A stretch of DNA of 64,000 bases. Source: Lingula anatina. Its lineage: Eukaryota; Animalia; Brachiopoda. Positions 3,101-17,300 of this stretch are shown in pieces. The position numbers and the translations under genes were made by a program. The stretch spans positions 16,554,001-16,618,000 of the forward strand of contig CM120641.1 of NCBI GenBank assembly GCA_051362555.1. The letters are read 5' to 3'. Within the stretch, counting starts at the first letter, position 1; each line of letters begins with the position of its first letter. The notes below the pieces were generated by a model. It saw only the letters and a list, made by a program, of their open reading frames with translations, was not told the origin of the DNA and searched no databases.

Positions 3101-6100
3101 GTTGTTGTTTTGCTTTTCTCTTCTCCAGGCGAGCTGTACATGAACTTCTGTCCATAGAAGGTATCCCCCAGCCTAGATATGCTGTGCTGGACAGAGATTG
3201 TGGGGACCCAAAGAGTGAGTGTGGCTAGAAATGGGACATGGGATATATTATGTATTATATATGAGACAGCAGGGATATTAACAGGCTCACTAAAGCATGG
3301 CTATTGTTGCTGCCAGCTGGTTTGAATTTAATGAATAAACCAGTAGTCTAACCACATTGGTGTAAAACAACGTAAAAAGATTGATTATATCATTTAAATC
3401 TTTTCAGTAGTCTGCTTTTTTGAAAAACTTTTTGCGTTGTTTTCAGGAATCGTTACTAACTATTACAATAACAACAAGTAATATTTGAAATACTACTTGA
3501 AATTAGAAGGTTTTCTCTTGATTGTGTTTCCCTTTATCTGTCCTTAATCTGCCAACTTAATTGGTTTATGTTGGTGATGGTATTCCTAATTTATTGTTGA
3601 TCTATTTGATGTTGGTGTATAAACATATTGTGTTGAGAAGGATCCTGGCAGTATGTTAGGAGACACCCTTGCTACATGATAATATGAAAAAGAGAGAATG
3701 TTAGATTATTTTAAGTTAACAAAAAAGGTGAAGAAGATTGTTTTGAGGATATAAATTGGAAAAAAACTAGCAGCAAGTTGACTATCAGATTGAATACTTG
3801 ATAGTGCTCGTTACTGCTCATTGCTTTAAGCTATGGAGCTGTGGTTTGCTTTTGCTTGTGCAATTAAACTACTGTATTCATAATTGGATAAATTGGTTAA
3901 CAAAAAGTGATATAAATTCCAAATCCAATTCTTGGTTAAGCATGCCTATTGTTGGCTTATTAATATGCAATTTTCTACACTGATCAGAACAGCATAAAAT
4001 TAGACTAGATAACTGTGATGTTCCTTCTCTGGGCACAAATCTGATACTTTTCATATCAATAATCTGAGTTGTTATTCCAGAGTGCCTGTTGATAGAGGGG
4101 GATGACCAGATAGAGGTCAATGGGATTGTATTTCAAAAGCCATTTGTTGAGAAGCCTGTCTCTGCTGAGGACCACAATGTGTACATCTACTACCCCACCA
4201 GTGCAGGAGGGGGCAGCCAGAGGCTCTTCAGAAAGGTCAGTGGTTGATATCACACTGACTGAGTTTGGCCACTGTCTTTGATTAACTAAGTGATTTCATT
4301 TATTTAAGTTAAAACCTTAAGAGTGGTGTCTGTCATTTTAGCATGGTCAGCATAAAGTTGATGTAGATATGAGGAAATATTTTTAGATTGCTTATGTCTA
4401 ATTATCCAGGCACATCGTAGGGCCACAGTAGCTAACTTATACATTATTTAAAAAGGAAAATACATAATGATATCATGTATGTACTCCATAGATGCTTTAT
4501 GATAAAGACATTGAAAATGCTCTTTTGGTTTCTTTTCAGATTGGAAGTCGAAGTAGCGTTTATTCTCCTGTAAATAAAGTGCGTAAAACAGGCTCTTATA
4601 TCTATGAACAGTTTATGCCTACAGATGGAACAGACATCAAGGTATATAGAGCTTTATATAGATTCAGCACATATAAGAGTCACAGTGTTAAACAAAATGA
4701 TTGAAAAAAACTTCTAAATTGGATATCCCCTAGCATCGTTAATGGTTTGATATTAGAACATATAAATACATTTTTACCACAGACTATTATTGAATTAAAT
4801 CTGAAAACTGTTTTATGCTAAATTATGTTTGATTGCAGGAAGACAGTTTTCTTCCTATTCTCTGGTTGAGAAAATTGCTCTTTTTTGGCAACTGTAGACT
4901 TTGACCTTATTGTCCTAATGTTGATGAATAATCCCTGCAATTGGTTATCCCAGGTTTACACTCTTGGTCCAGACTATGCCCATGCAGAGGCCAGGAAGTC
5001 TCCAGCTTTAGATGGGAAAGTGGAGAGAGATAAAGATGGGAAGGAAGTCAGATATCCCATCTTACTGAGTGCCAAGGAGAAACTCATAGCTAGGAAAGTC
5101 TGTCTAGCATTTAAGGTAGAAGCTGCGGAGACTTGTTTTATCAAATTGATGTGTGTTTTTAAGGGATATCTCTAACAAATAAAAGATTTTAATATTGTAA
5201 AATCTTAGTGTTAAATGTGTGCATATGTGATAATTTTAAACAGATGTTGACTTCTCTTTGATTTCTTTCTTTGAAAAGTTGTTATGTATAATACTCATAT
5301 GCAGTGACACAAAACACATTTGCTGAACACGGGAATGAATAAAACCAATTGACCACACCTTTATGTAGAGAGGAATACATTTGTTTTCAGCAAATGGTTT
5401 GTGGGTTTGATCTCCTGAGAGCTAATGGGGAGTGCTATGTCTGTGATGTTAATGGGTTCAGCTTTGTGAAGACATCTATGAAATATTATGATGACTGTGC
5501 AAAAATTCTAGGGTAAGTAGAAAAATCATAAAGCATTTATATGATCAGATCAATTAAATGTATTTCAGGAAGTAGGCTCCAGTGAGCTTTCTGGCAACAA
5601 TGTAATAATTTTTTGTTTATTTTAATAAATGGTCTTAGTTAGTTTTTCAAAGAACATCTTGAAAGCATTAAATTTGGAAGTAGCTGGTCAGAAGATTATT
5701 TTAATTGACAGAATAATTCATCTGTTTTTCCAGCAATATGATAATCCGTCACTTTGCCCCACAGTTGTCTATTCCCATCTACTACCAGCCTGAGGATCCT
5801 CCCATTGTGCCCACTACATGTGGAACTATGTGAGTCAGTGGGAACAGATGACAAGTGTTTTACAGATTGGGTTTTACATAGTTTTCATTATAAAAGACCA
5901 TACTAAAAAAACATGAGAATTAGGGAAAATAAGTTTGATTTAATATTTAAAGGAACCCACCTCCCAATATCTTACTTATGTAAAATGCAAGTTTTTAAAA
6001 TGTGATTTTATATGGTAATTATCAGGATGGAGTTGAGATGTGTGATAGCTGTGATAAGACATGGAGACAGGACACCAAAGCAAAAGATGAAGATGGAGGC

Positions 6101-9100
6101 CAAACATAAGAGGTACATTGTATCTTTGTTTTAAGAATTTTTAGTATTGTTTTAACATATACATGTTTCAATTCATAAAGTGGAATTGAATCTCTTTCTC
6201 TTAAGATTCTACTCTTTTGCACTTCAAGGTTATATAATATTAAGTTTCTTAAATAGTTGCATTTGAACAGGTAAATCAGATTCAGTGATAAAGAATTTTA
6301 TCAGTTCTGTGTGACCAGTGGCAATAATAATGATATGTTTTTCAGGTTCTTTGACTTATTTGAGAAGTACGATGGATTTAAGACAGGACAGTTGAAACTG
6401 AAGCGTCCAAGGCAGCTACAAGAGATCTTGGACATTGCCAGGGCCCTGTTATTGGAGATAGAGGCCCACCCTGCCAACCCTGAAGTGGAGGAGAAAAAGT
6501 CCAAGTTAGAGCAACTGAAGGCTGTGCTGGAAATGTAAGAAATATATCTGAAGTGATTGTAGAAATATCAAAATTCAGCAAAAATGTTCAGACTTATATA
6601 GTACGTGTATATTGCTAGAGCTGACTGCTTTCAATGAAATATTCAATGTGGTAAGGCATAATGTGTCCATGCAAAAAAACTACGATGAAGAAGGTAGGAT
6701 AGCTTTAACAAAGTGCAGCCATTATTATATATCAATTATATTTTTCACTTTCCCTCAAACAGGTATGGCCATTTCTCAGGGATCAACAGGAAGGTCCAGC
6801 TCAAGTACCAGCCTCATGGGGCTCCTAAGAAGTCCTCAGATGAGGTGTCAGATGGAGAGCTCTCCAGTGAGTATAGCATAAGAACAGATTTAACATGATG
6901 AAGTGGCTTCCTTGGTTTTGTTCTGGCATACAGTGTATTCATGCAAATTGGAATTCCTGTGTTATTAATGTAGCATGAAAATTTGAAGGTCTTGACCAAA
7001 AGGGTGAGAACAAAATGCAAAAGTGCCATTGTGAATTGGATCATAATCTATCTTCCTTATTTTTCTTTACAATTAAAATATAATTGAAGAGAAAGGCAAC
7101 CTTTAAAAGGTTTATATCAGTTAAAAGCTGCATTAATTTTTAGCAAGTATTTTACATATGCACTGTATGATTTGAATGGAGAGATAAATGAACAAATATA
7201 TAAATAAATGGATGGAGTATTGGTAAGTTTAAAATGAGTTGAGATGCCTTTGCATGCACAGGCCATGCTGCAGACCCAGGTCCCTCTCTGGTGCTGATCC
7301 TGAAGTGGGGAGGAGAACTGACCCCAGCAGGGAAGATGCAGGCTGAGGAGCTGGGCAAGGCTTTCAGGTGCATGTATCCTGGTGGAGAAGGTAAGTCTGC
7401 ATGGGTTGATCTTAAAACAGCACTCTTTTTACCTGAATTGTTTTAAGATCAGATATTATGAAAATCACATTTTCCCTTGTCCTTTTTATGTACAGACACA
7501 GATGTGTCTGTTATGTACAGACACAGATGTGTCTGTACATATAGCCATCATCTGCGTCTGTCGTTGTCGTCGCCGTCGTCGCCGTCGCCGTGCACTTTTA
7601 CCGATAACACGATAAGTGGAAAACCATTTTACATTTTGACTTGAAACTTACAGAACTGATGAATATGCATAATACGCAGGTCAAGTTCGAAAATCAGCAT
7701 GATCGGGTCACTTTTAGGGAATTTATGCTGTTTTTTCACTTTTTTCAGCATATATGCAGCACCGATAACACGATAAGTGGAAAACCATTTTACCTTTTGA
7801 CTTGAAACTTACAGAACTGATGAATATTCATAATACGCAGGTCAAGTTCAAAAATCAGCATGATCGGGTCACTTGTAGGGAATTTTAGTGTTTTTTCACT
7901 TTTTTCAGCATATATGCAGCACCGATAACACGATAAGTGGAAAACCATTTTACCTTTTGTCTTGAAACTTACAGAACTGATGAATATTCATAATACGCAG
8001 GTCAAGTTTGAAAAACAGCATGATCGGGTCACTTTTAGGGAATTTATGCTGTTTTTTCACTATTTTCAATATAAATGCAACACTGATAACACAATATAAG
8101 AAAAACGGATTGGCCAATTGTAATTATACTCACAGGAGTGGTCAATCTTACTAAGACGCAGGTTGAGTTCAAAAATCAGCATAATCGGGCCATCATTTTA
8201 TACTGTTTTTACATTATACTGTTTTATGTCTCCTTGATCTAAAGGTTCAATACGATGCCGAGAGGAGAGCAATAAAGTGACAAACACAAGTATGATGTTC
8301 GAAACTTGGCCGATGCCGGCCGCTTTTATTGTGAATCCTTATACTAAAATGAATTAAATTTTGATGTTAAAATTAATTAATTGTGACAGTGCCAAAATAC
8401 GTAATTTTTTACGCCTGAAAAGACTATTTTATATATAATTCCCAAAGAACATAGTGCAGACGTTTTAATTTGTGGGGTTGCAAAGAGGCCATAACCTTGG
8501 GATCGCAGAGGCCAAGGAAAACCCCACAAAGGACAAAGGAGCCTGCTGATAAGGACAGAAAGTTTCCAGATGAGTAAGTAGTGCGTAATGAGTAGAGGTC
8601 GGAAATGTAAAGACACAAAACGTGCCGCTCACCTAGGCGAAGCTAGGCAGACGAAAATATGACAAAAATAAGGCATGAAAAGTTATGCCACTCAACCTGA
8701 AAACCAGGTCGGAAAAGTAAAGACACAAAACGTGCCACTCACTCTGACGAAGCAGAGCGGAATATAAAGACACAAAACGTGCCACTCACCTAGGCGTAGC
8801 TAGGCGGACAAAAATATTGCAAAAATAAGGCATGAAAAATTATGCCACTCAACCTGGAAACCAGGTCGGAAAAGTAAAGACACAAAACGTGCCACTCACT
8901 CTGACGAAGCAGAGCGGAATATAAAGACACAAAACGTGCCACTCACCTAGGCGTAGCTAGGCGGACAAAAATATTACAAAAATAAGGCATGAAAAAATAC
9001 GCCACTCAACCTGAAAACCAGGTCGGAAAAGTAAAGACACAAAACGTGCCACTCACTCTGACGAAGCAGAGCGGAATATAAAGACACAAAACGTGCCACT

Positions 9101-11298
9101 CACCTAGGCGTAGCTAGGCGGACAAAAATATTACAAAAATAAGGCATGAAAAAATATGCCACTCAACCTGAAAACCAGGTCGGAAAAGTAAAGACACAAA
9201 ACGTGCCACTCACTCTGACGGAGCAGAGCGGAATATAAAGACACAAAACGTGCCACTCACCTAGGCGTAGCTAGGCGGACAAAAATATTACAAAAATAAG
9301 GCATGAAAAATTATGCCACGTCGTTGCCGACTGGAGTAGGATAGAGGATAAAAGGAAGGAAAATTACCGGTGGTCCTGAAAAGGTCGGGACCTGACAAAA
9401 GGGGGAGATGCGCCTATGGGCCTGAAAAGGACATGTGATGAGGGTGACAATAGATATACAACAAGAAATCTCAAGGAAGTGATGTAGATATGGACTAAGA
9501 GCTATGGATAAAGGAAATTCTATGGGCCTGAAAAGGACACGTGTTGAAGGACAATTTAGGAAAGCGAAACGCGAAGCCGGGAGGCCTTCCTAATGATGGC
9601 GCCCCGTAGACTACGATAAAGTTTATACTGGCCCACATCCGAGAGATGCACCCCGTCTGGCTTGATGTGGAGCCGGTTAACTCTCCGCAGACCTACGTTC
9701 TTCCAAAAGGAAATGAATGGATTTCTTAGGGGCAAGTCTGCTAGGAGAATATTGAGCTGATCTACTTGGTCATTAAACGAAGGGTGAGGGGGACGTAGCC
9801 TGTGGTGAACTTGGTTCACCACCACATGTGAAACACCAAATACGTCGTGAAAACGACGGGCTAACTCCTCAATATCCTTACAGAGGTTTGAGGGAGAAAC
9901 GTTACGGTCGGACAGGTCATTAGAACCAATGATAAGAACGACCAGGTCGGGCCGTACCCGGCGAAGGATCCCCAAATCGTACTTGACCAGTTTAGGGACC
10001 GTGCGGCCGCCTATCCCGTGCCAGTGCACAGAATTGGGGAAACCAAAATCTTTCGCCGCCCGTACGTCCCGACCCTGGTCGAGAAATGAACGGAGTCTAT
10101 GAACAAATGAATGACCAATAACTAGAACTGCCATGGTGATCGTAAGTCTGTGAGTCAAAAACTAGCAAATTATATTGAAAAAGAGAAAAAAACTTACTTG
10201 TTAGCTGATCAAAATCGTACTGAGGCGAATTGAGCAGTGATCCGTTGATTGTTCTCTTGCGACTGTCGTGCGTGAGAGCAAAGTGAGAAAGAATACTATT
10301 GTACATTTCGTTAAACGCGACGGCGCGTACCTTGTGGAACACACCTGACCTAGTTCAACCTGATTGGGCAAAAATTAGTAACGAACCAAATACTCTGATT
10401 GGATAAGAAAGATTGGCCAATCACAGCCCATTGCCGATGCAGCACTAAATCCACGATTCTATGTGCAGCATTGAATCCGAGGCTCGTCAGTTCATGCAGC
10501 ACTCAATCCGAGGTTTGTACAAGTATGGCAAAATTACAATGCGAATCCCGTCGGAACTAGGTTACAATCCGTCGCCATAAAACAACGTTTGACTCAGCCG
10601 CCAAACTTCCCTTTTTCACATTTCCTCAGATTCAATTATTAGGCATGTTAACAGTCTCATTATTTAACTAATAAGATGCCTAAAAGTGTTTGTTTGATAT
10701 TTCCTGTATCTTTACAACATTGTTAGTTGATTATGTAAAAAACATGGTAAACTTGTTATCATGTATTGTGTAATAAAGTGTCAAAAATGGAAATAAACTC
10801 ATATCATTGCAATTTGTCATATTCAATCATCCACTATGTTCAGAATCTTAGATGGAGGAAATTGGACATTTAACACTGTTCTATTGATATTTTCCCCATC
10901 TCATCAATTTTATTAGTTCGTCATATAAAAATGGCAGTTAATTGTTAATTTTGTTTTATGTTAAAAAAGTGTTAAAAATGGAAATAAACCCAATTCAGAA
11001 AAGTGCTGTCTTGTTTACATTTTGGCATTTTCAAGGTGTGACTTTGAAGTTCCATGGGCCTGAAGACTTTTGCTAGTCACATTTTCTGAATATCTGTGAT
11101 ACAAATATTTTATAATTAAAAATTGATGGTCATTAAGCTGTTAAACATTATGTAATATTGCATCAAAATTTGAAGAAACCCCTATTTTGGGCACTGCTTC
11201 CATGATACCATTTAAGGAAAATCATGTCACTTACTGTTCTCAAACTTACAGGAAAGAAACATGGGACTAAAATACAGCTTCAGTAGGCAATGCAGTCT

Positions 11299-11342
<44 letters not shown>

Positions 11343-14300
11343 AGTTAAACAGTTTTTTGTGAAAATTTAATTTTTCACATATTGGCATTTTCAAGGTGTG
11401 ACTTTAAAGTTCCATGATACTGAAGACTTTTGCTTGTCACATTTTCTGAATGTCTATGTTACTAATATTTTATTAATAACATTTGATTGTCATTATGCTG
11501 TTAAACATTATGTAATGTTGCATCAAAATTTGAAGAAACCCCTATTTTGTGCACTGCTCCTATGATGACCATTTAAGGGAAATCATGTCACTTACTGTTC
11601 TCAAACTTACAGGAAAGAAACATGGGTCTAACATACAGCTTCAATAGGCAACGCAGTCTGTTTGGTAAAATTTTCTGGCAATTTAACAGTTTTTTGTGAA
11701 AATTTAATTTTTCACTTATTTGCATCTTTATTTCACTTTTCTCAGCATATATGCAGCACCGATAACACGATATGTGAAATACCATTTTACCTTTTGGCTT
11801 GAAACTTACAGAACTGATGAATATTCATAATACGCAGGTCAAGTTTGAAAAACAGCATGATAGAGCCACTTTTATGGAAGTTATGCTGTTTTTTCATTTT
11901 TTTAGCATATATACAACACTGATAATACAATATAAGAAAAACAGATAGGCAAATTGTCATTTTACTCACAAGAGTGGTCAATCTTACTAAAACATAGGTT
12001 GAGTATGAAAATCAGCATAATCGGTCCATTATTTTAGAAGTTATGCTTTTTTTTCACATTTCCTCAGATTCAATTCTTAGGCATGTTAATAGTCTCATTA
12101 TTGAACTAATAAGATACATAAAAGTGTTTGTTTGACATTTCCTGCATCTTTACAACATTGTCAGTTGATTATGTAAAAATGATGGTAAATTTGTTATCAT
12201 GTATTGTGTGATGAAGTGTCAAAACTGGAAATAAACTCATATCATTGCAATTTGTCATATTCAATCATCCACTATGTTCAGAATCTTAGATGGAGGAAAT
12301 TGGACATTTAACACTGTTCTATTGATATTTTCCCCATCTCATCAATTTTATTAGTTCGTCATATAAAAATGGCAGTTAATTGTTAATTTTGTTTTATGTT
12401 AAAAAAGTGTTAAAAATGGAAATAAACCCATTTCAGAAAAGTGCTGTCTTGTTTACATTTTGGCATTTTCAAGATGTGACTTTGAAGTTCCATGGTCCTG
12501 AAGACCTTTGCTAGTCACATTTTTCTGAATATCCATGATACTAATATTTTATTATTAAAAATTGATGGTCATTATGCTGTTAAACATTATGTAATATTGC
12601 ATCAAAATTTGAAGAAACCCCTATTTTGGGCACTGTTCCCATGATGATCATTTAAGGAAAATCATATCACTCACTGTTCTCAAACTTACAGGAAAGAAAC
12701 ATGGGACTAAAATATAGCTTCAGTAGGCAATGCAGTCTGTTTGGTAAATTTTTCTGGCAATTAAACAGTTTTTTGTGAAATTTTAATTATTCATTTATTG
12801 GCATTTTCAAGGTGTGACTTAGAACCTCCACGGGCTTGAAGACCTTTGCTAGTCACATTTTCTGAATATCCATGATACTAATATTTTATTATTAAAAATT
12901 GATGGTCATTATGCTGTTAAACATTATGTAATGTTGCATCAAAATAGAAGAAAACAATTTTTGGTGTTGCTGCCATGATGACCATTATGGGAAAATCATG
13001 TTACTTACGACTCAATCTTTCAAAAAAAGTTGGAAAAGCAGTCTAATTGGCTTCTTTTTCTGGAATTTATACATTTTAGTGAAATATTCATTATTATCTT
13101 TTTGGCATATTCATTGTGGGACTCAGAACTCCCATGGACATGAAGCCAAATGGTAATCAAATTTTCTACATGTCCTTGCTATTCATAGTCAATAATAAAA
13201 AATTGGTGATCATTATTCTATAAATTATTATGTAATGTTACATCAAAATTGACAAAAATATTTTTGTACTGCTTCTGCAAACATTATGGAAAGAAAACTG
13301 TGTTACTTATTATTATGTTTAACTTACAAGTATGATTTTTAGGATTGGCATGCAGTTCAAATTAGAAAGCCAGCTCAATTGGGTTATCATTTATTATTGA
13401 ATTTATGCAATTTTGTGTGAAATTTTCATTTTTCTCATTCTGGCTCTTTCTAATTGTAAATTTGAACTCTGATGGACCTGAAGCCTTATGCTTTTACTTT
13501 CGTCGTTGTTACCTGTTCTGCATAATTAAAATTTGATATTGACTGTGCAGTTAAACATAATGTACTATTGCATCAGAATTGGCAGTCTCCTATTTTTGTG
13601 CATTATTGTTTTGTGCTTTTCTTAAGCTGTGTCTTATGGGACAAATTTGTGTGGTCAGTCTGTAAATTCCCCTTGGGTATTCACTAGGCTAAGTTTAGTG
13701 CTATAAACTCATTTGCCTGATTAAGTGGCCATTAAATGAGATTTCATAAATCACACTTGTTGATATTTCCCTGTAAACTCCCAAAGGTTAAGCTCTCTGC
13801 TAGATAACAGTGTGCATAATAAGGAAGCACTGAATAGCAGCTTCATTAGATTATATTTTTGTTGTTTTCTTTTTAATTTCTTCTCCAACACTGGCATTTT
13901 TAAGATGTGACTTTCCCATCCACCTGAGGCTCTGCACAATTTCTGTATTTCCACGTAAGCAGTTGTATTGGTATTCATGTCTTTAAACACTAGTAATATT
14001 ATTTTATGCACTGTCATCATTTTTCTTATATTGGGACTTTCATCATGTGAATTTTAACTCTCATGGTCATGAAACTATAATCTTATTGAAGGGGTGGATT
14101 GAGACCATCTTCTGGGTCTCCTGGAAGACAGTTAGATTTTTTATATTGATGGGTATCTATTTTTTTCTTTTGGAAGACCATCAAAATGGAAGATGGATCA
14201 ATAAAGATACTTTAGAATACTGTCAAAAATATTTCTGGATCTGCTCCTGTTATTGACCATGTTACCTGTTGTGCATAATGAAAAATCAGTGTTGACTGAC

Positions 14301-17300
14301 TGCTATTATAAGCATTATTTATTGTTGCATCAAAATTGACAAAATGACCTCTTTTGCATCTTTTTTTTTCTGTTTTTTGTCTGTACATTTGACAGCTTTG
14401 CTGCCTTGTTTTTTTTCAAAAGTGAATCAGCATTAAAATATTTGTAATTTATAAAACCAAACCCTGTGTGGTACTAAAATCAGATAGTGCTAAAATTATT
14501 TATAAGTCCAAAAGTGAGGAGGTTCTCTGAGAATTTAGCACAGTATTGAGATGGCCTTTTAACTTTTGGAATTCAGGTGACTATGGTAACACCCCTGGCC
14601 TGGGCTTTCTTAGACTACACAGCACATTTAGACATGATCTAAAGATCTATGCGTCAGATGAAGGCAGAGTACAAATGACAGCAGCTGCTTTTACTAAGGT
14701 TTGTTGTAGTCATAGATTTTGAATGTGATCATCAGGATGAGGTCACATTACATGTGGGATCTGTCCTGTTATTTAGGTATTTAAATGTCTCAGGAACCAT
14801 GAAGAATCATAAAGCCTGTATGACCTTATCAATGAAAATGACAAAAGGTCCAAAAGATTATCAGTTGCAAAGACTTTAGAGTACAATGTGAAATAATTCT
14901 TTCAGGGACTTCTTGCCTTGGAGGGGGAGTTGGCCCCAGTACTGGTACAGATGGTGAAGAGTGCAGACACCAATGGTCTGCTGGATGAGGACAGAGAAGC
15001 AGCTAAATATCAAAACAAGTAAATTGAAGAGTGATATTTTTGAAAATAACCATAAAATATTAAATGGATTTAATAGCACAGATAGACATATTTAGAAATA
15101 GCCACTGCAGACTTTCAATGTGTTATTTGAGTCAAATCAAGGATCAAATGAATTTTATAATTTATGTTTCAAGTTTGAGATTAAATTGATGAAGTGCTTT
15201 TGTTAACTACAGGTTAATTTGTCACAATTATTGAGTCTGGAATCTAATGCTGTCTCAATGTACAGTTATAGTAGTTGAAGAACTGAACTGAACACATTAC
15301 TTTCAGAATCAAAGCCAAGCTAAAGCAGATTTTAAATGAAGACAAAGATTTTGAAGAAGAAGACATACAGCAAGTAAGTTTTTCAACCTCTGACAAAGAT
15401 TGTTTTATCACAGAATAATGTTTCAGAACACATTTTGAAGCCTCAGAATTTTGTGAAAAATCTTTATTTTTTCTGTGGAAAAAGATGGGATATGTTGTAT
15501 GTTTTGTACTTTTTAATTTTACCACAGTATGTGGTTCTTCAATTCATTATTAGTACCACCAGTGTATATGCTGGCGGTACTCATGGTTTTAGTCCCGACC
15601 CGTCTCGTACAGCTCCGCTGGCTCCTGCGGCTCCGCCGGCTCCGCAGTCGGGCGCTGGAAACAAGTCACCGTTAACGCTTCTCCTCCTAGACCGCCAGGA
15701 CCTGTGTCTCCATCTCTTGGATTTAGGTCATGTATAATCTCAACTTGAACACCCTGGTTTTTTTGTCTCTGTCTGTGCATTAGCCTGGGCGTGACACTTG
15801 TTGAAACGCACCCTTGTCAAAATTTTTGAAAATTCAAGGCTAAATATCTCCCAAACCAAAGGAATTATGGGAAAAATTACTACAGAAGTCTGACCGAAAG
15901 TCATATGTGGAGATTCCAAATATGCCCTTGGATTTGACTTTTGACCTTTTTCTATGTTAAATATTCCAAAATTAGCAGAGATATGCCCATAATTACTATT
16001 GAACTTGAATAGGAAGTCATATACTGGTAATCTAACTGTGACCTTGAAATTGACCTTTGACCTACTTTTCATGATGAACTGCACTTTGAAGTTTTCTGAT
16101 CTTTATATCTCCAAAACTGGCAGAGATACACCCATAGTTACTATTGAACTTGAGTAGGAAGTTATATAAAAGTAATCTTACTGTGACCTTTAAATTGACC
16201 TTTGACCTACTTTTCACCATGAACTGAACTTTGCAAATTTTCTAGCCCTTATATCTCCAAAACTGGCAAAGATACACCCATAGTTACTATTGAACTTTAA
16301 TAGGAAGTTATATACTGGTAACCTAACTGTGACCTTTAAATTGACCTTTGACCTACTTTTCACAATGAACTGAACTTTGCAAATTTTCCAGCCCTTATAT
16401 CTCCAAAACTGGCAGAGATACACCCATAATTACTGTTGAACTTGAATAGGAAGTCATACACTGGCATTCTTATTGTGACCTTGAAATTGACCTTTGACCT
16501 ACTTTTCAACATGAACTGAACTTTGCATGTTTCCTGGCCTTCATATCTCCAACATTGGCAAAGAAATGCCCATAGCTACTATTAATCTCATATAGGAAGT
16601 CATATACTGTGACCTTGAAATTGACCTTTGACCTACTTTTTTACCACAAACTGAACTCTGCATATTTTCTTGCCCTTCATATCTTCAAAACAAGCAGAGA
16701 TCTGCTCAGTGTTGTCCCTAGGTTTTCTCTTTTGTCAGCATACCGGCATATGCAATACTGATAATGCATTTCAAGGAAAACCAATAGGCCTATTGTCTAG
16801 AAAATCACAGGAATGATCAGTGTTAGGAAAATACAGGTCAATTTGAACATCTCCTTGACTGGACCATTTTAACTGTTATGTTTTTTCTATTTTTTTTTTT
16901 TTTTTTGCATATTTTGAGAACTCTTGTTTATTGCATTTTATAGAGCTTGTCAAGCTCAAGACTGGTGGTGGTGTCCAATTTTTTTTTTTTTTTTTTTTTG
17001 GGGGGGGGGGAGGGGGGGTCCATACAAATGCGCTTACTCCAGCTGGTGGTACAATATCCAGAGGCGGTATCGCCTCTCTGATCCTCTAGTTAAACCATTT
17101 AAAGTTATGTGAAAATTTGAAATTGATGATAACCTCATTGTTGTGCCAGTTATGTGAGGACAGCCAGTCCATCAGGACAGCTCTCATGTTTATCAAGAAC
17201 CCGCGGCAGATGTGTAAGAGGATCCATGCCCTCATCCAGAAACTGACGGGAAGGATAAAGCAGCTAAAGGCAGACCCTAGGACAAGAGGTGAACAAAAAT

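Follow-up and report, generated by a model that had tools for sequence, protein, structure and literature searches.

A covarying double-hairpin array behind an SGNH hydrolase gene in a putative Ngaro-like retrotransposon derivative of Lingula anatina

The insert and its host locus

The window analysed here is a stretch of 64,000 nucleotides of the Lingula anatina genome, rich in tandem repeats. It includes two exons of a PPIP5K gene and, antisense in the intron between them, an insert whose parts lie in the order promoter block, splice donor, SGNH ORF, hairpin array and polyA signal:

7243..14719, plus strand: two consecutive PPIP5K phosphatase-domain exons and their intron, which holds the insert in antisense
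7600..8225, resuming at 10612-13000, no strand assigned: host 161-bp tandem repeat/dispersed repeat, interrupted by the insert
8226..10611, minus strand: the whole insert, 2,386 bp, a probable non-autonomous derivative of a Ngaro-like retrotransposon
10208..10611, minus strand: 5' block, a promoter-like region and most of the first exon (CCAAT boxes, rise in RNA depth)
10192..10200, minus strand: splice donor CAA/GTAAGT, left by 14 X13 reads at 10198
9556..10134, minus strand: intact SGNH hydrolase ORF, 192 aa (Pfam Lipase_GDSL_2)
9333..9555, minus strand: pyrimidine-rich spacer with three acceptor-like CTTTTCAG/G repeats, recognized by sequence
8597..9332, minus strand: hairpin array, 13 modules and one GNRA variant, with a 157-nt period of three modules
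8226..8596, minus strand: 3' block, recognized by its stem, AATAAA, hairpin and ACAT end

The two exons match positions 52-83 (at 7243-7443) and 82-114 (at 14531-14719) of the His_Phos_2 model, and a PPIP5K2_N match lies at 1092-1400. The insert is flanked by an A-run on both sides, with no longer target duplication. Reads and contigs of the unoccupied host repeat, which leave at 10612 (beyond which read depth is very high), fix its 5' end; its 3' end is placed, provisionally, by comparison with the uninterrupted host repeat. No terminal repeats, inverted or direct, were found within this copy. An internal complementary region was looked for there and not supported: when the insert ends are joined, their complement matches nothing significantly within the insert, and 277 of 300 shuffles do equally well.

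The 5' block carries four CCAAT/ATTGG boxes (at 10421, 10416, 10402 and 10367), and at 10208 other copies diverge into different sequence, in DNA (X1, X9) as well as in RNA (X12, X13). The 3' block has a stem closed by 11 bp at about 8469-8530; past its AATAAA (8325-8330) comes a 5-bp hairpin, and the block ends in ACAT ahead of the A-run. Its fold z is only -2.1. DNA contigs of X1 and X3 join the donor to SGNH, and SGNH through the spacer to the first module, without a branch. In X9 a single contig runs from the 5' block directly into the array, with SGNH missing.

The S, G, N and D-x-x-H motifs are all present in the SGNH ORF, which has a pI of 11.0 and matches Pfam Lipase_GDSL_2 with E 4e-11. 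Its AlphaFold model (pLDDT 92) matches SGNH folds in the PDB, among them that of the ZfL2-1 ORF1 esterase, 4C1B, which also gives a profile match (E 2.6e-7). No SGNH relatives were found in viral contigs.

Design and pairing of the array

The original prediction described, on the minus strand, 13 full double-hairpin modules and one variant first module, with three versions of stem 1, two of stem 2 and a GUCG-GCAA-CGAC hairpin, and all of these are found where it placed them. The module can be written C-[CG-N5-loop-N5'-UG]-AGU-[GGCAY-loop-RUGYC]-U-rich. Tandem-repeat analysis gives 4.6 copies of the 157-nt period with 97% matches, the periods being 96-97% alike. Only three module types are independent; the 13 modules repeat these in tandem, and their number reflects a recent tandem amplification. 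Two details of the prediction need amending. The versions of stem 1 stand, but the stem is 7 bp long rather than 5 bp and the junction is AGU rather than UGAGU, because CG pairs with UG (as C-G and G.U); in an alternative register, seen by eye, the invariant C before stem 1 pairs with the G of AGU and the A is bulged. The C-UNCG-Y loop sequences are likewise as described but do not make canonical UNCG tetraloops: they are 6-nt loops flanked by C and C, or C and U, in place of the C-G closing pair.

All 96 of 96 stem cells are paired; five of 12 pairs have changed on both sides and none is broken. Five double-changed pairs were also reached in 39 of 500 shuffles, and the shuffle scores of 0/500 are inflated by the relatedness of the modules. 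Copies of the same type differ by 12 distinct substitutions, two of them in stems (paired positions make up 72 of 157; P=0.037), and both of these yield G.U pairs. That structure is kept on the strand of the SGNH sense, as had been claimed, is supported by folding and by pairing: the folding z is -7.37 for the minus strand and -4.01 for the plus strand, and the named structure, worth about -44.9 kcal/mol per period on the minus strand, loses 5-6 of its 36 pairs on the plus strand and comes to -24 to -28 kcal/mol there. A weaker point is stem 2 in types A and B, whose pair probability is only 0.27-0.54 without a span limit, against 0.75-0.78 at a 60-nt span.

Comparison with other copies of the array, which the prediction had proposed, turns up further variants that keep pairing if they are phased as we infer. 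One is a U-A to C-G change at 9225/9216, each side of which is seen in 4/4 reads in X15 and is present in X1 contigs too; another is a CCUCG/CGGGG stem (X3, X9), put together from a change at 9272 and a loose end at 9266 whose phasing is likewise presumed. That the original prediction could not match the array to hammerhead, HDV, twister, IRE or K-turn consensus agrees with an Rfam search of 7400-12000: its 13 matches to E 10 include none within 8597-9332 and none at gathering score. The same search in six relatives gave no matches to E 0.1.

Transcription and splicing

The RNA evidence comes from raw polyA-selected reads of the same species. Transcription of the minus strand, on which the original prediction depended, is evident: polyA RNA covers the array with the first mate on + in 27-41 reads versus 1-3 (X12) and in 31-44 versus 0 (X13). 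RNA covering SGNH appears in just one study (X12, X13), and SGNH depth is near zero in X15 and X18. RNA depth over the 5' block climbs from about 10390 toward 10250. In X13, 14 reads splice from 10198 onto a sequence that reads, by eye, M-P-P-K-R-S-R-S; the last exon base of the donor completes the ATG of this gag-like exon, which is missing from the window. (Gag starts in related elements are MPPVKR and MPPKKR.) The exit at 10198 is not among the DNA loose ends listed. At the donor, X13 has both spliced RNA (14 reads) and RNA that retains the intron (depth about 6), and none of the RNA junctions listed splices onto the acceptor-like repeats of the spacer.

Transcripts run through the array. 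Twenty (X12) and 24 (X13) reads span the period junction, 19 (X12) and 12 (X13) pass from the last module into the 3' block, and read ends do not pile up within the array. Reads with the last-period variant number 20-24 (X12) and 24-27 (X13), matching the SGNH depth of 19-40 and 16-29 and thus leaving little room for a gag mRNA that also carries the array.

Two readings offered by the original prediction are not supported by these observations. Rather than a free-standing new class of RNA, the array is a cis part of a Ngaro-like retrotransposon derivative, with polyA RNA running through it; and that same RNA, together with the lack of an Rfam match, speaks against a processing or self-cleaving array. 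Spliced-leader RNA genes were rejected (no separate units, and RNA passes through), as were an Sm-site RNA (AUUUUUG is in one linker type only) and a host intronic RNA (the array is on the strand opposite to PPIP5K).

Related elements

Relatives have the order promoter-SGNH-gag-RT-RNase H-tyrosine recombinase (YR), with the methylase absent. An SGNH ORF lies upstream of a gag-like ORF in seven of 13 loci examined, and upstream of RT/YR in L005, L006 and L147. L147 has an RVT_1 match with E 2.6e-15 and a YR with 34% identity to that of L006 (E 6e-35), which itself matches Phage_integrase at E 7e-5, below cut-off. In L147, YR starts at 610, behind an RNase H frame that stops at 592 and in which Pfam has no match to E 0.01. 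The L147 assembly is circular, its tail joined to the promoter, which fits a B/A junction. (L147 is the sole good match among six loci from the prokaryote collection; L148 was used in one model search, and the remaining four were set aside.) The ends of L005/L006, compared by eye, consist of AATAAA, a 5-bp hairpin and ACAT with an A-run, as in the window insert. This order of parts, together with the splice onto a gag-like exon missing here, suggests that the window copy is a deletion derivative of an esterase-first, Ngaro-like retrotransposon.

None of 26 related loci scanned has a long tandem hairpin array after SGNH comparable to that of the window, so high multiplicity is not required. What relatives do carry, once each, is a hairpin resembling stem 1 (CG-N5-loop-N5'-UG-NGU), found in the SGNH-gag spacer, 250-420 nt past SGNH, in seven of 22 related loci; antisense controls gave 0, and 3-6 of 300 shuffles matched per matching locus. 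The pattern was loosened following a weak match (E 0.35), and its seven matches amount to one inherited site; RNAalifold, unprompted, draws the C-G (9/9) and G.U (8/9) base pairs of this hairpin, which was found in neither of two tails tested. A 5-bp hairpin resembling stem 2 (GACAC/GUGUC, GGUCC/GGACC, GGUAC/GUACC) is in the SGNH-gag spacer of seven of 22 loci. The pattern AGU plus stem 2 occurs at 120 loci, with one match each in the 80 listed.

Covarying arrays of another make lie behind YR: five modules in L147, with 98% of cells paired and five of 10 pairs double-changed, and five in L006, with 95.6% of cells paired and four of nine pairs double-changed. Module sequence differs between lineages. 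An Infernal model of the window modules, as had been proposed, matched just the window's own modules: nothing was significant in 27 other loci with filters on (best E 0.78) or in 13 of those with filters off (best E 0.098), and a model of the L147 tail matched L147 alone. When the four non-coding parts of the insert were aligned locally with 11 regions of relatives, no convincing match emerged (for the best of these 44 comparisons, 2 of 100 shuffles were as good), and the C-RGU-G triloop hairpin of relatives is absent from the insert.

A landing pad on unspliced RNA?

The reading that we favour, while giving it somewhat less than an even chance, is that the array is a multivalent site for a protein of the element, probably Gag, and marks unspliced RNA. 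The protein would land on the array and so single out unspliced RNA to be assembled into particles and reverse transcribed; it would read the C-G/G.U base of stem 1, AGU, GGCA and the U-rich linkers and ignore the sequence of the stems, which would hence be free to covary. That module sequence is specific to the lineage would be expected of an element-encoded partner rather than of a conserved host one. We think it somewhat more likely than not that in the master element gag lies downstream of the array, with SGNH and array in an intron cut from the gag mRNA, and for the placement of the array we lean modestly to the intron over the 3' tail. In favour of this reading stand the structure kept on the sense strand, the further pairing variants of other copies, the stranded polyA RNA, the splice onto a gag-like exon, the match of array and SGNH depth in RNA, the unbranched contigs of X1 and X3 and the stem-like hairpins of relatives. 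Against it, the independent module types number only three and 39 of 500 shuffles equal their double changes; the X9 contig lacks SGNH; the window model finds nothing significant in other loci; SGNH-covering RNA comes from a single study; the covarying arrays of L006 and L147 sit behind the recombinase and not in an intron; and AATAAA and the end of the element come right after the window array. The broader proposal is a doubtful one: that of an amplified packaging signal of tyrosine-recombinase retrotransposons, in a widespread esterase-first Ngaro lineage with SGNH and a conserved double hairpin in an intron that has to be spliced out to make the gag start codon, where only genome-length RNA carries the putative Gag-binding array and each lineage rewrites the module together with its Gag.

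An unlikely alternative, for which the tail position of those other arrays speaks, is that the window array belongs to a 3' terminal block, as theirs do, and that reverse transcriptase or Gag would recognize it to prime synthesis and join ends, gag-RT-YR having been lost between SGNH and array. The AATAAA and element end within 370 nt of the window array fit it, as do the X9 contig that omits SGNH, an exact-copy DNA depth of the 5' block about 3x that of SGNH in X1, X3 and X9, and the solo AB repeats known for Ngaro from the part of PMC8547959 available. Yet the relatives' tail modules are single bulged hairpins, unlike the window modules; the RNA depth of the array is not above that of SGNH; in X1, sister subfamilies bring overall SGNH depth up to about 700-1000 and can explain the array depth; and contig depth is not copy number.

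Slightly less probable again, we judge, is that the array tunes RNA processing through host factors, either with GUGAGU as a false 5' splice site that draws U1 snRNP or with the repeats promoting export of RNA that keeps its intron, and thereby, at the same low probability, sets the ratio of gag-spliced, SGNH and full-length RNA. The RSV NRS and the MPMV CTE are precedents. UAG/GUGAG(U/C) is found in five of 13 modules and AGA/GUGAGU in four of 13, the donor shows spliced and intron-retaining RNA together, and AATAAA lies downstream. Against it, +1 G has become U along with its stem partner in four of 13 modules, so that pairing is kept and GU is not; bases -3 to +3 are buried in stem 1; no splice from module sites is among the RNA junctions listed; and the motifs vary between lineages, unlike the site of a conserved host factor. 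The likeness of the periods, the abundance of tandem repeats in the window and the single stem-1-like hairpin of relatives, with no comparable long tandem array there, would suit a minisatellite that expanded neutrally, by slippage or unequal exchange, from one selected ancestral unit, its multiplicity without function. We consider this a little more improbable still: no pair was broken as the three types diverged, ahead of the spread of the 157-nt period; changes since then either spare the stems or yield G.U; template-switch repair of palindromes would not be expected to give strand-specific G.U pairs, and arrays arose independently in two other lineages.

Two last proposals seem to us very improbable. 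Self-cleaving or nuclease-processing sites that release module-sized RNAs would account for junction bases that are invariant between covarying stems, but the array is without an Rfam match down to E 10, polyA-selected RNA covers SGNH upstream of it, reads cross the period junction, and read ends do not pile up within the array. Action of the hairpins on single-stranded DNA intermediates, as recombinase or replication sites for example, has in its favour that DIRS-1 cDNA is single-stranded, according to the accessible part of PMC7192593; against it, first-strand cDNA would be the plus strand, on which the pairs noted above are lost from each period, and with DNA energies the period folds weakly (-16.2 versus -13.4 kcal/mol).

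Even for DIRS-1, the best-studied element of its order, the primer of reverse transcription is not known, according to that part of PMC7192593, and a literature search for DIRS with 'packaging signal' found nothing. The array offers a 50-nt motif, backed by covariation, that is directly testable for binding of Gag, RT or SGNH. The expression plan supported by RNA (SGNH first, within an intron, and gag by way of splicing) is unlike the published layout with the hydrolase after YR, and if the array were a neutral expansion, the esterase-first architecture would still be new.

Comparison with known elements

The gag, RT/RNase H and tyrosine recombinase ORFs of Ngaro elements are missing from the window copy and present in its relatives, and the copy is therefore filed as a Ngaro derivative and not a member. 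Split direct repeats (A1-ORFs-B1-A2-B2) were not found within it; there is a second exit from the 5' block in DNA, and L147 assembles as a circle, but a complete set of such repeats was not seen. As in Ngaro, and in contrast with DIRS-like and PAT-like elements, no methyltransferase domain follows RNase H in L147; the inverted terminal repeats and internal complementary region of DIRS-1-like elements were looked for in the window insert and not found.

Hydrolase-bearing Ngaro elements (DIRS order) are known, for example Xenopus DIRS-53_XT and DIRS-54_XT (PMC9210276, in the portion available). As far as that portion describes them, the likeness extends to the SGNH ORF, to the relatives' gag, RT/RNase H and tyrosine recombinase without a methylase, to insertion at a short A-run and to the L147 circle. 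In the amphibian type the SGNH ORF comes after YR, whereas here it is first, preceding gag and inside an intron; the Lingula anatina gag ATG is apparently formed by the splice, and the window copy is without gag, RT, YR and split direct repeats. Our literature searches turned up no description of hairpin arrays in such elements.

The esterase of the non-LTR element ZfL2-1 forms one domain of ORF1p; it was reported to bind phospholipids and to leave oligo-(A) RNA unbound (PMC3905857, in the part available), which argues against SGNH itself as the reader of the array. It is, on that account, another retrotransposon-borne SGNH fold with a basic surface, but the window SGNH is a stand-alone ORF.

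The five-module arrays of L147 and L005/L006 belong to the same kind of element. Like that of the window, they lie on the sense strand and combine a core that does not vary with stems that covary freely. They differ in being single bulged hairpins with unrelated spacers and other cores, placed after YR, and the models do not cross-match.

We know of no virus particle for this class of retrotransposon. Retroviral psi lies past the major splice donor and is built from a number of short hairpins whose G-rich linkers are exposed. The window array would resemble it in its short hairpins, in exposed G-rich linkers and in a place behind a splice donor, which may restrict it to unspliced RNA; it differs in being amplified to 13 tandem modules.

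The insert and its setting

A high-copy host repeat is interrupted by an insert that lies on the minus strand in a single intron of a plus-strand PPIP5K gene. Where the repeat is empty, its reads and contigs diverge from the window sequence at 10612 and so fix the 5' limit; the 3' end probably lies at 8226, as judged from sequence. The features, in minus-strand order, are:

10611 to 8226, minus: insert, 2,386 bp, flanked on either side by an A-run
5' block with four CCAAT boxes, then exon 1, minus
10198/10197, minus: splice donor CAA|GTAAGT
SGNH ORF, minus: intact, 192 aa
SGNH-to-array spacer, minus: 223 nt
9332 to 8597, minus: array
3' block, minus: 371 nt, with AATAAA

The insert has no terminal repeats, and there is no second copy within the window. 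Since gag, reverse transcriptase (RT), tyrosine recombinase (YR) and split repeats are absent from the window copy, it is filed as a derivative. At least half of the insert's words are present in nine DNA runs from three studies, and diverged sister subfamilies also occur in DNA reads. Within the promoter block, at 10438-10518, a 24-nt direct repeat occurs three times in diverged form. Tandem repeats of the host, of 161 bp and 146 bp, lie within dispersed repeats at 7600-8189, 10612-13000 and 15961-16701, the first of them being abundant in RNA runs.

Structure and variation of the array

The array of double-hairpin modules is confirmed as 13 modules led by a variant one, with a period of 157 nt (4.6 copies, 97% matches). 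Each module reads C-[CG-N5-loop-N5'-UG]-AGU-[GGCAY-loop-RUGYC], after which comes a U-rich linker. The pairing of stem 1 is as the original prediction had it, but extends over 7 bp rather than 5, and the loops are UNCG-like without being canonical UNCG tetraloops.

In this structure 96/96 cells pair and no pair is broken: of the 12 pairs, 5 vary at both positions and 3 at one position, switching to or from G.U. Because the 13 copies collapse to three independent types, and 39/500 shuffles match the five double changes, that count is not significant by itself. Among same-type copies, 2 of 12 distinct changes lie within stems (P=0.037), and each of the two yields G.U; folding z is -7.37 for the minus strand versus -4.01 for the plus strand, on which 5-6 of the 36 pairs per period are lost. 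Other genomic copies carry changes that, presumably in phase, keep pairs: U-A to C-G at 9225/9216 (4/4 reads per position in the RNA run X15, and contigs of the DNA run X1), and a CCUCG/CGGGG stem (a change at 9272 with a loose end at 9266, in DNA runs X3 and X9). These same-type substitutions, the minus-strand fold bias and the pair-keeping variants elsewhere support selection on the structure, and the interpretation first placed on the array is borne out in part. Rfam has no match inside the array.

Related elements

A first search found 23 SGNH relatives, mostly stand-alone proteins of ~190 aa whose clusters have as many as 141 members, and a profile search 483 representatives at E < 1e-30. 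One relative, P0082, is a 2,341-aa protein with six stretches of the insert-type SGNH family and a weak OSK-domain match. From 286 metagenome-contig candidates 26 related loci were taken. One more good locus, L147, is on a contig filed in a bacterial MAG, its gene content being that of a eukaryotic retroelement; the whole contig is probably mis-binned host DNA. It holds a whole, circularly permuted element in the order promoter, donor-like site, SGNH, spacer, gag-like ORF, RT (RVT_1, E 2.6e-15), RNase H-like frame, YR, tail; a methylase would not fit into this layout. Loci L005 and L006 keep SGNH, RT and YR but have lost gag by deletion. In 7 of the 13 loci examined, a basic gag-like start (MPPVKR, MPPKKR, MSSKKR, MSTKRK) lies 495-782 nt 3' of SGNH. 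When L025 (600-620) is compared by eye with L001 (7875-7995), a short GC-AG intron 5' of the SGNH start is seen to have been precisely lost, which shows passage through spliced RNA.

The GC donor CAG|GCAAGT recurs in several related loci. The 11-mer AAGTTTGGCGG is common to L147 (2230-2240) and the window (10598-10608), at or near the presumed element 5' end, and the L005 copy has a 24-nt imperfect inverted repeat (83%), one arm at its 5' end and the other at its 3' end (1767-1790 / 6069-6092). A long irregular hairpin (UGAGUG...CACUC) is conserved in the SGNH-gag spacer of L001 (8800-8875) and 8 other loci, stopping in some just before a donor-like AAG|GUA; Rfam has no match to it in the three loci scanned.

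Transcription and splicing

Four RNA runs were examined: X12 and X13 (one study), X15 and X18. Stranded polyA reads of X12 and X13 extend over exon 1, SGNH and a single collapsed period of the array, nearly all of them having the first mate on plus. Array depth with the first mate on plus versus minus is 27-41 versus 1-3 (X12) and 31-44 versus 0 (X13); first mate on plus denotes minus-strand RNA in most stranded libraries, and the array is transcribed on the minus strand, as had been anticipated. In X15 and X18, SGNH depth is near zero and the few array reads are more diverged.

At the donor, 14 X13 reads exit onto an exon reading, by eye, M-P-P-K-R-S-R-S, the intron-retaining depth being ~6. 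This gag-like exon was not found in the window, and the exit is absent among the DNA loose ends listed. Its ATG is apparently divided by the intron (A|TG, donor 10198, X13 reads), so that gag could be translated from spliced RNA only. A second exit from the 5' block, at 10208, is seen in other copies in DNA and RNA; its target, absent from the window, resembles, by eye, the 3' and 5' ends of the insert joined and reverse-complemented (ICR-like), and could alternatively be a B repeat or deletion join.

Intron or tail

We somewhat favor an array within the SGNH-gag intron over one in the element tail. Unbranched contigs (X1, X3) link donor to SGNH and SGNH to array, and RNA depth in the last period equals SGNH depth, which leaves little room for an array-bearing gag mRNA. 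A stem-1-like hairpin occurs in the SGNH-gag spacer of 7/22 relatives (antisense 0; 3-6/300 shuffles per matching locus), by a pattern loosened after a weak match and with matches that represent one inherited site; RNAalifold recovers its C-G and G.U base pairs. A stem-2-like 5-bp hairpin is likewise present in 7/22 relatives, and repeated hairpins lie directly 3' of SGNH in L147. On the side of the tail, L147 and L006 each have five covarying modules behind YR, AATAAA and the element end come after the window array, the 5' block is joined to the array in one X9 contig, and in DNA the exact-copy depth over the 5' block is ~3x that over SGNH, although contig depth is no copy number and sister subfamilies can account for much of the depth. 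In L147 a 14-bp long-range pairing (1590-1603 x 2221-2236, probability 0.6-0.8) is predicted to enclose the whole tail domain, five modules included, near the presumed end junction.

What the array may do

Invariant exposed bases on covarying stems, repetition and turnover between lineages give the array the look of a binding site, whose bases an element-encoded protein would contact. Our tentative first choice is a multivalent Gag site: Gag would pick out array-bearing RNA to be assembled into particles and reverse-transcribed. If intronic, the array would be carried by unspliced RNA only, and might then be likened to retroviral psi, which is also present on unspliced RNA only. SGNH itself is very basic (pI 11.0), but is a less likely reader, since the related ZfL2-1 esterase is reported to bind lipids but no oligo-(A) RNA (PMC3905857).

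Compared with a Gag site, a signal in the tail that serves RT or end joining is distinctly less probable, and control by host factors over splicing, polyadenylation or export slightly less so again; neutral amplification ranks just below these. Self-cleavage is very improbable: 20 (X12) and 24 (X13) reads span the period junction and read ends do not pile up within the array in these runs, which argues against efficient cleavage. We give an ssDNA site the same slight chance.

Comparison with known systems

Neither hairpin arrays nor an esterase-first layout is described in the portions covered of PMC9210276, PMC7192593, PMC6681497, PMC8547959, PMC3783388 and PMC3905857; Repbase and the Goodwin/Poulter reviews may already note the layout. 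Among the Ngaro papers listed as mentioning hairpins, each has one or two such mentions. No literature was found joining DIRS retrotransposons with a packaging signal, and Ngaro is unmentioned in the packaging literature among the matches listed. Within an esterase-first Ngaro-like element, then, the array forms a transcribed cis component with structure, and its proposed role is testable. The gene content of the relatives (SGNH, gag-like, RT, RNase H-like and YR, no methylase) fits Ngaro, which is described as having no methylase (PMC9210276); in the amphibian Ngaro elements of the same source the hydrolase is placed after YR, whereas in the elements studied here it comes first.
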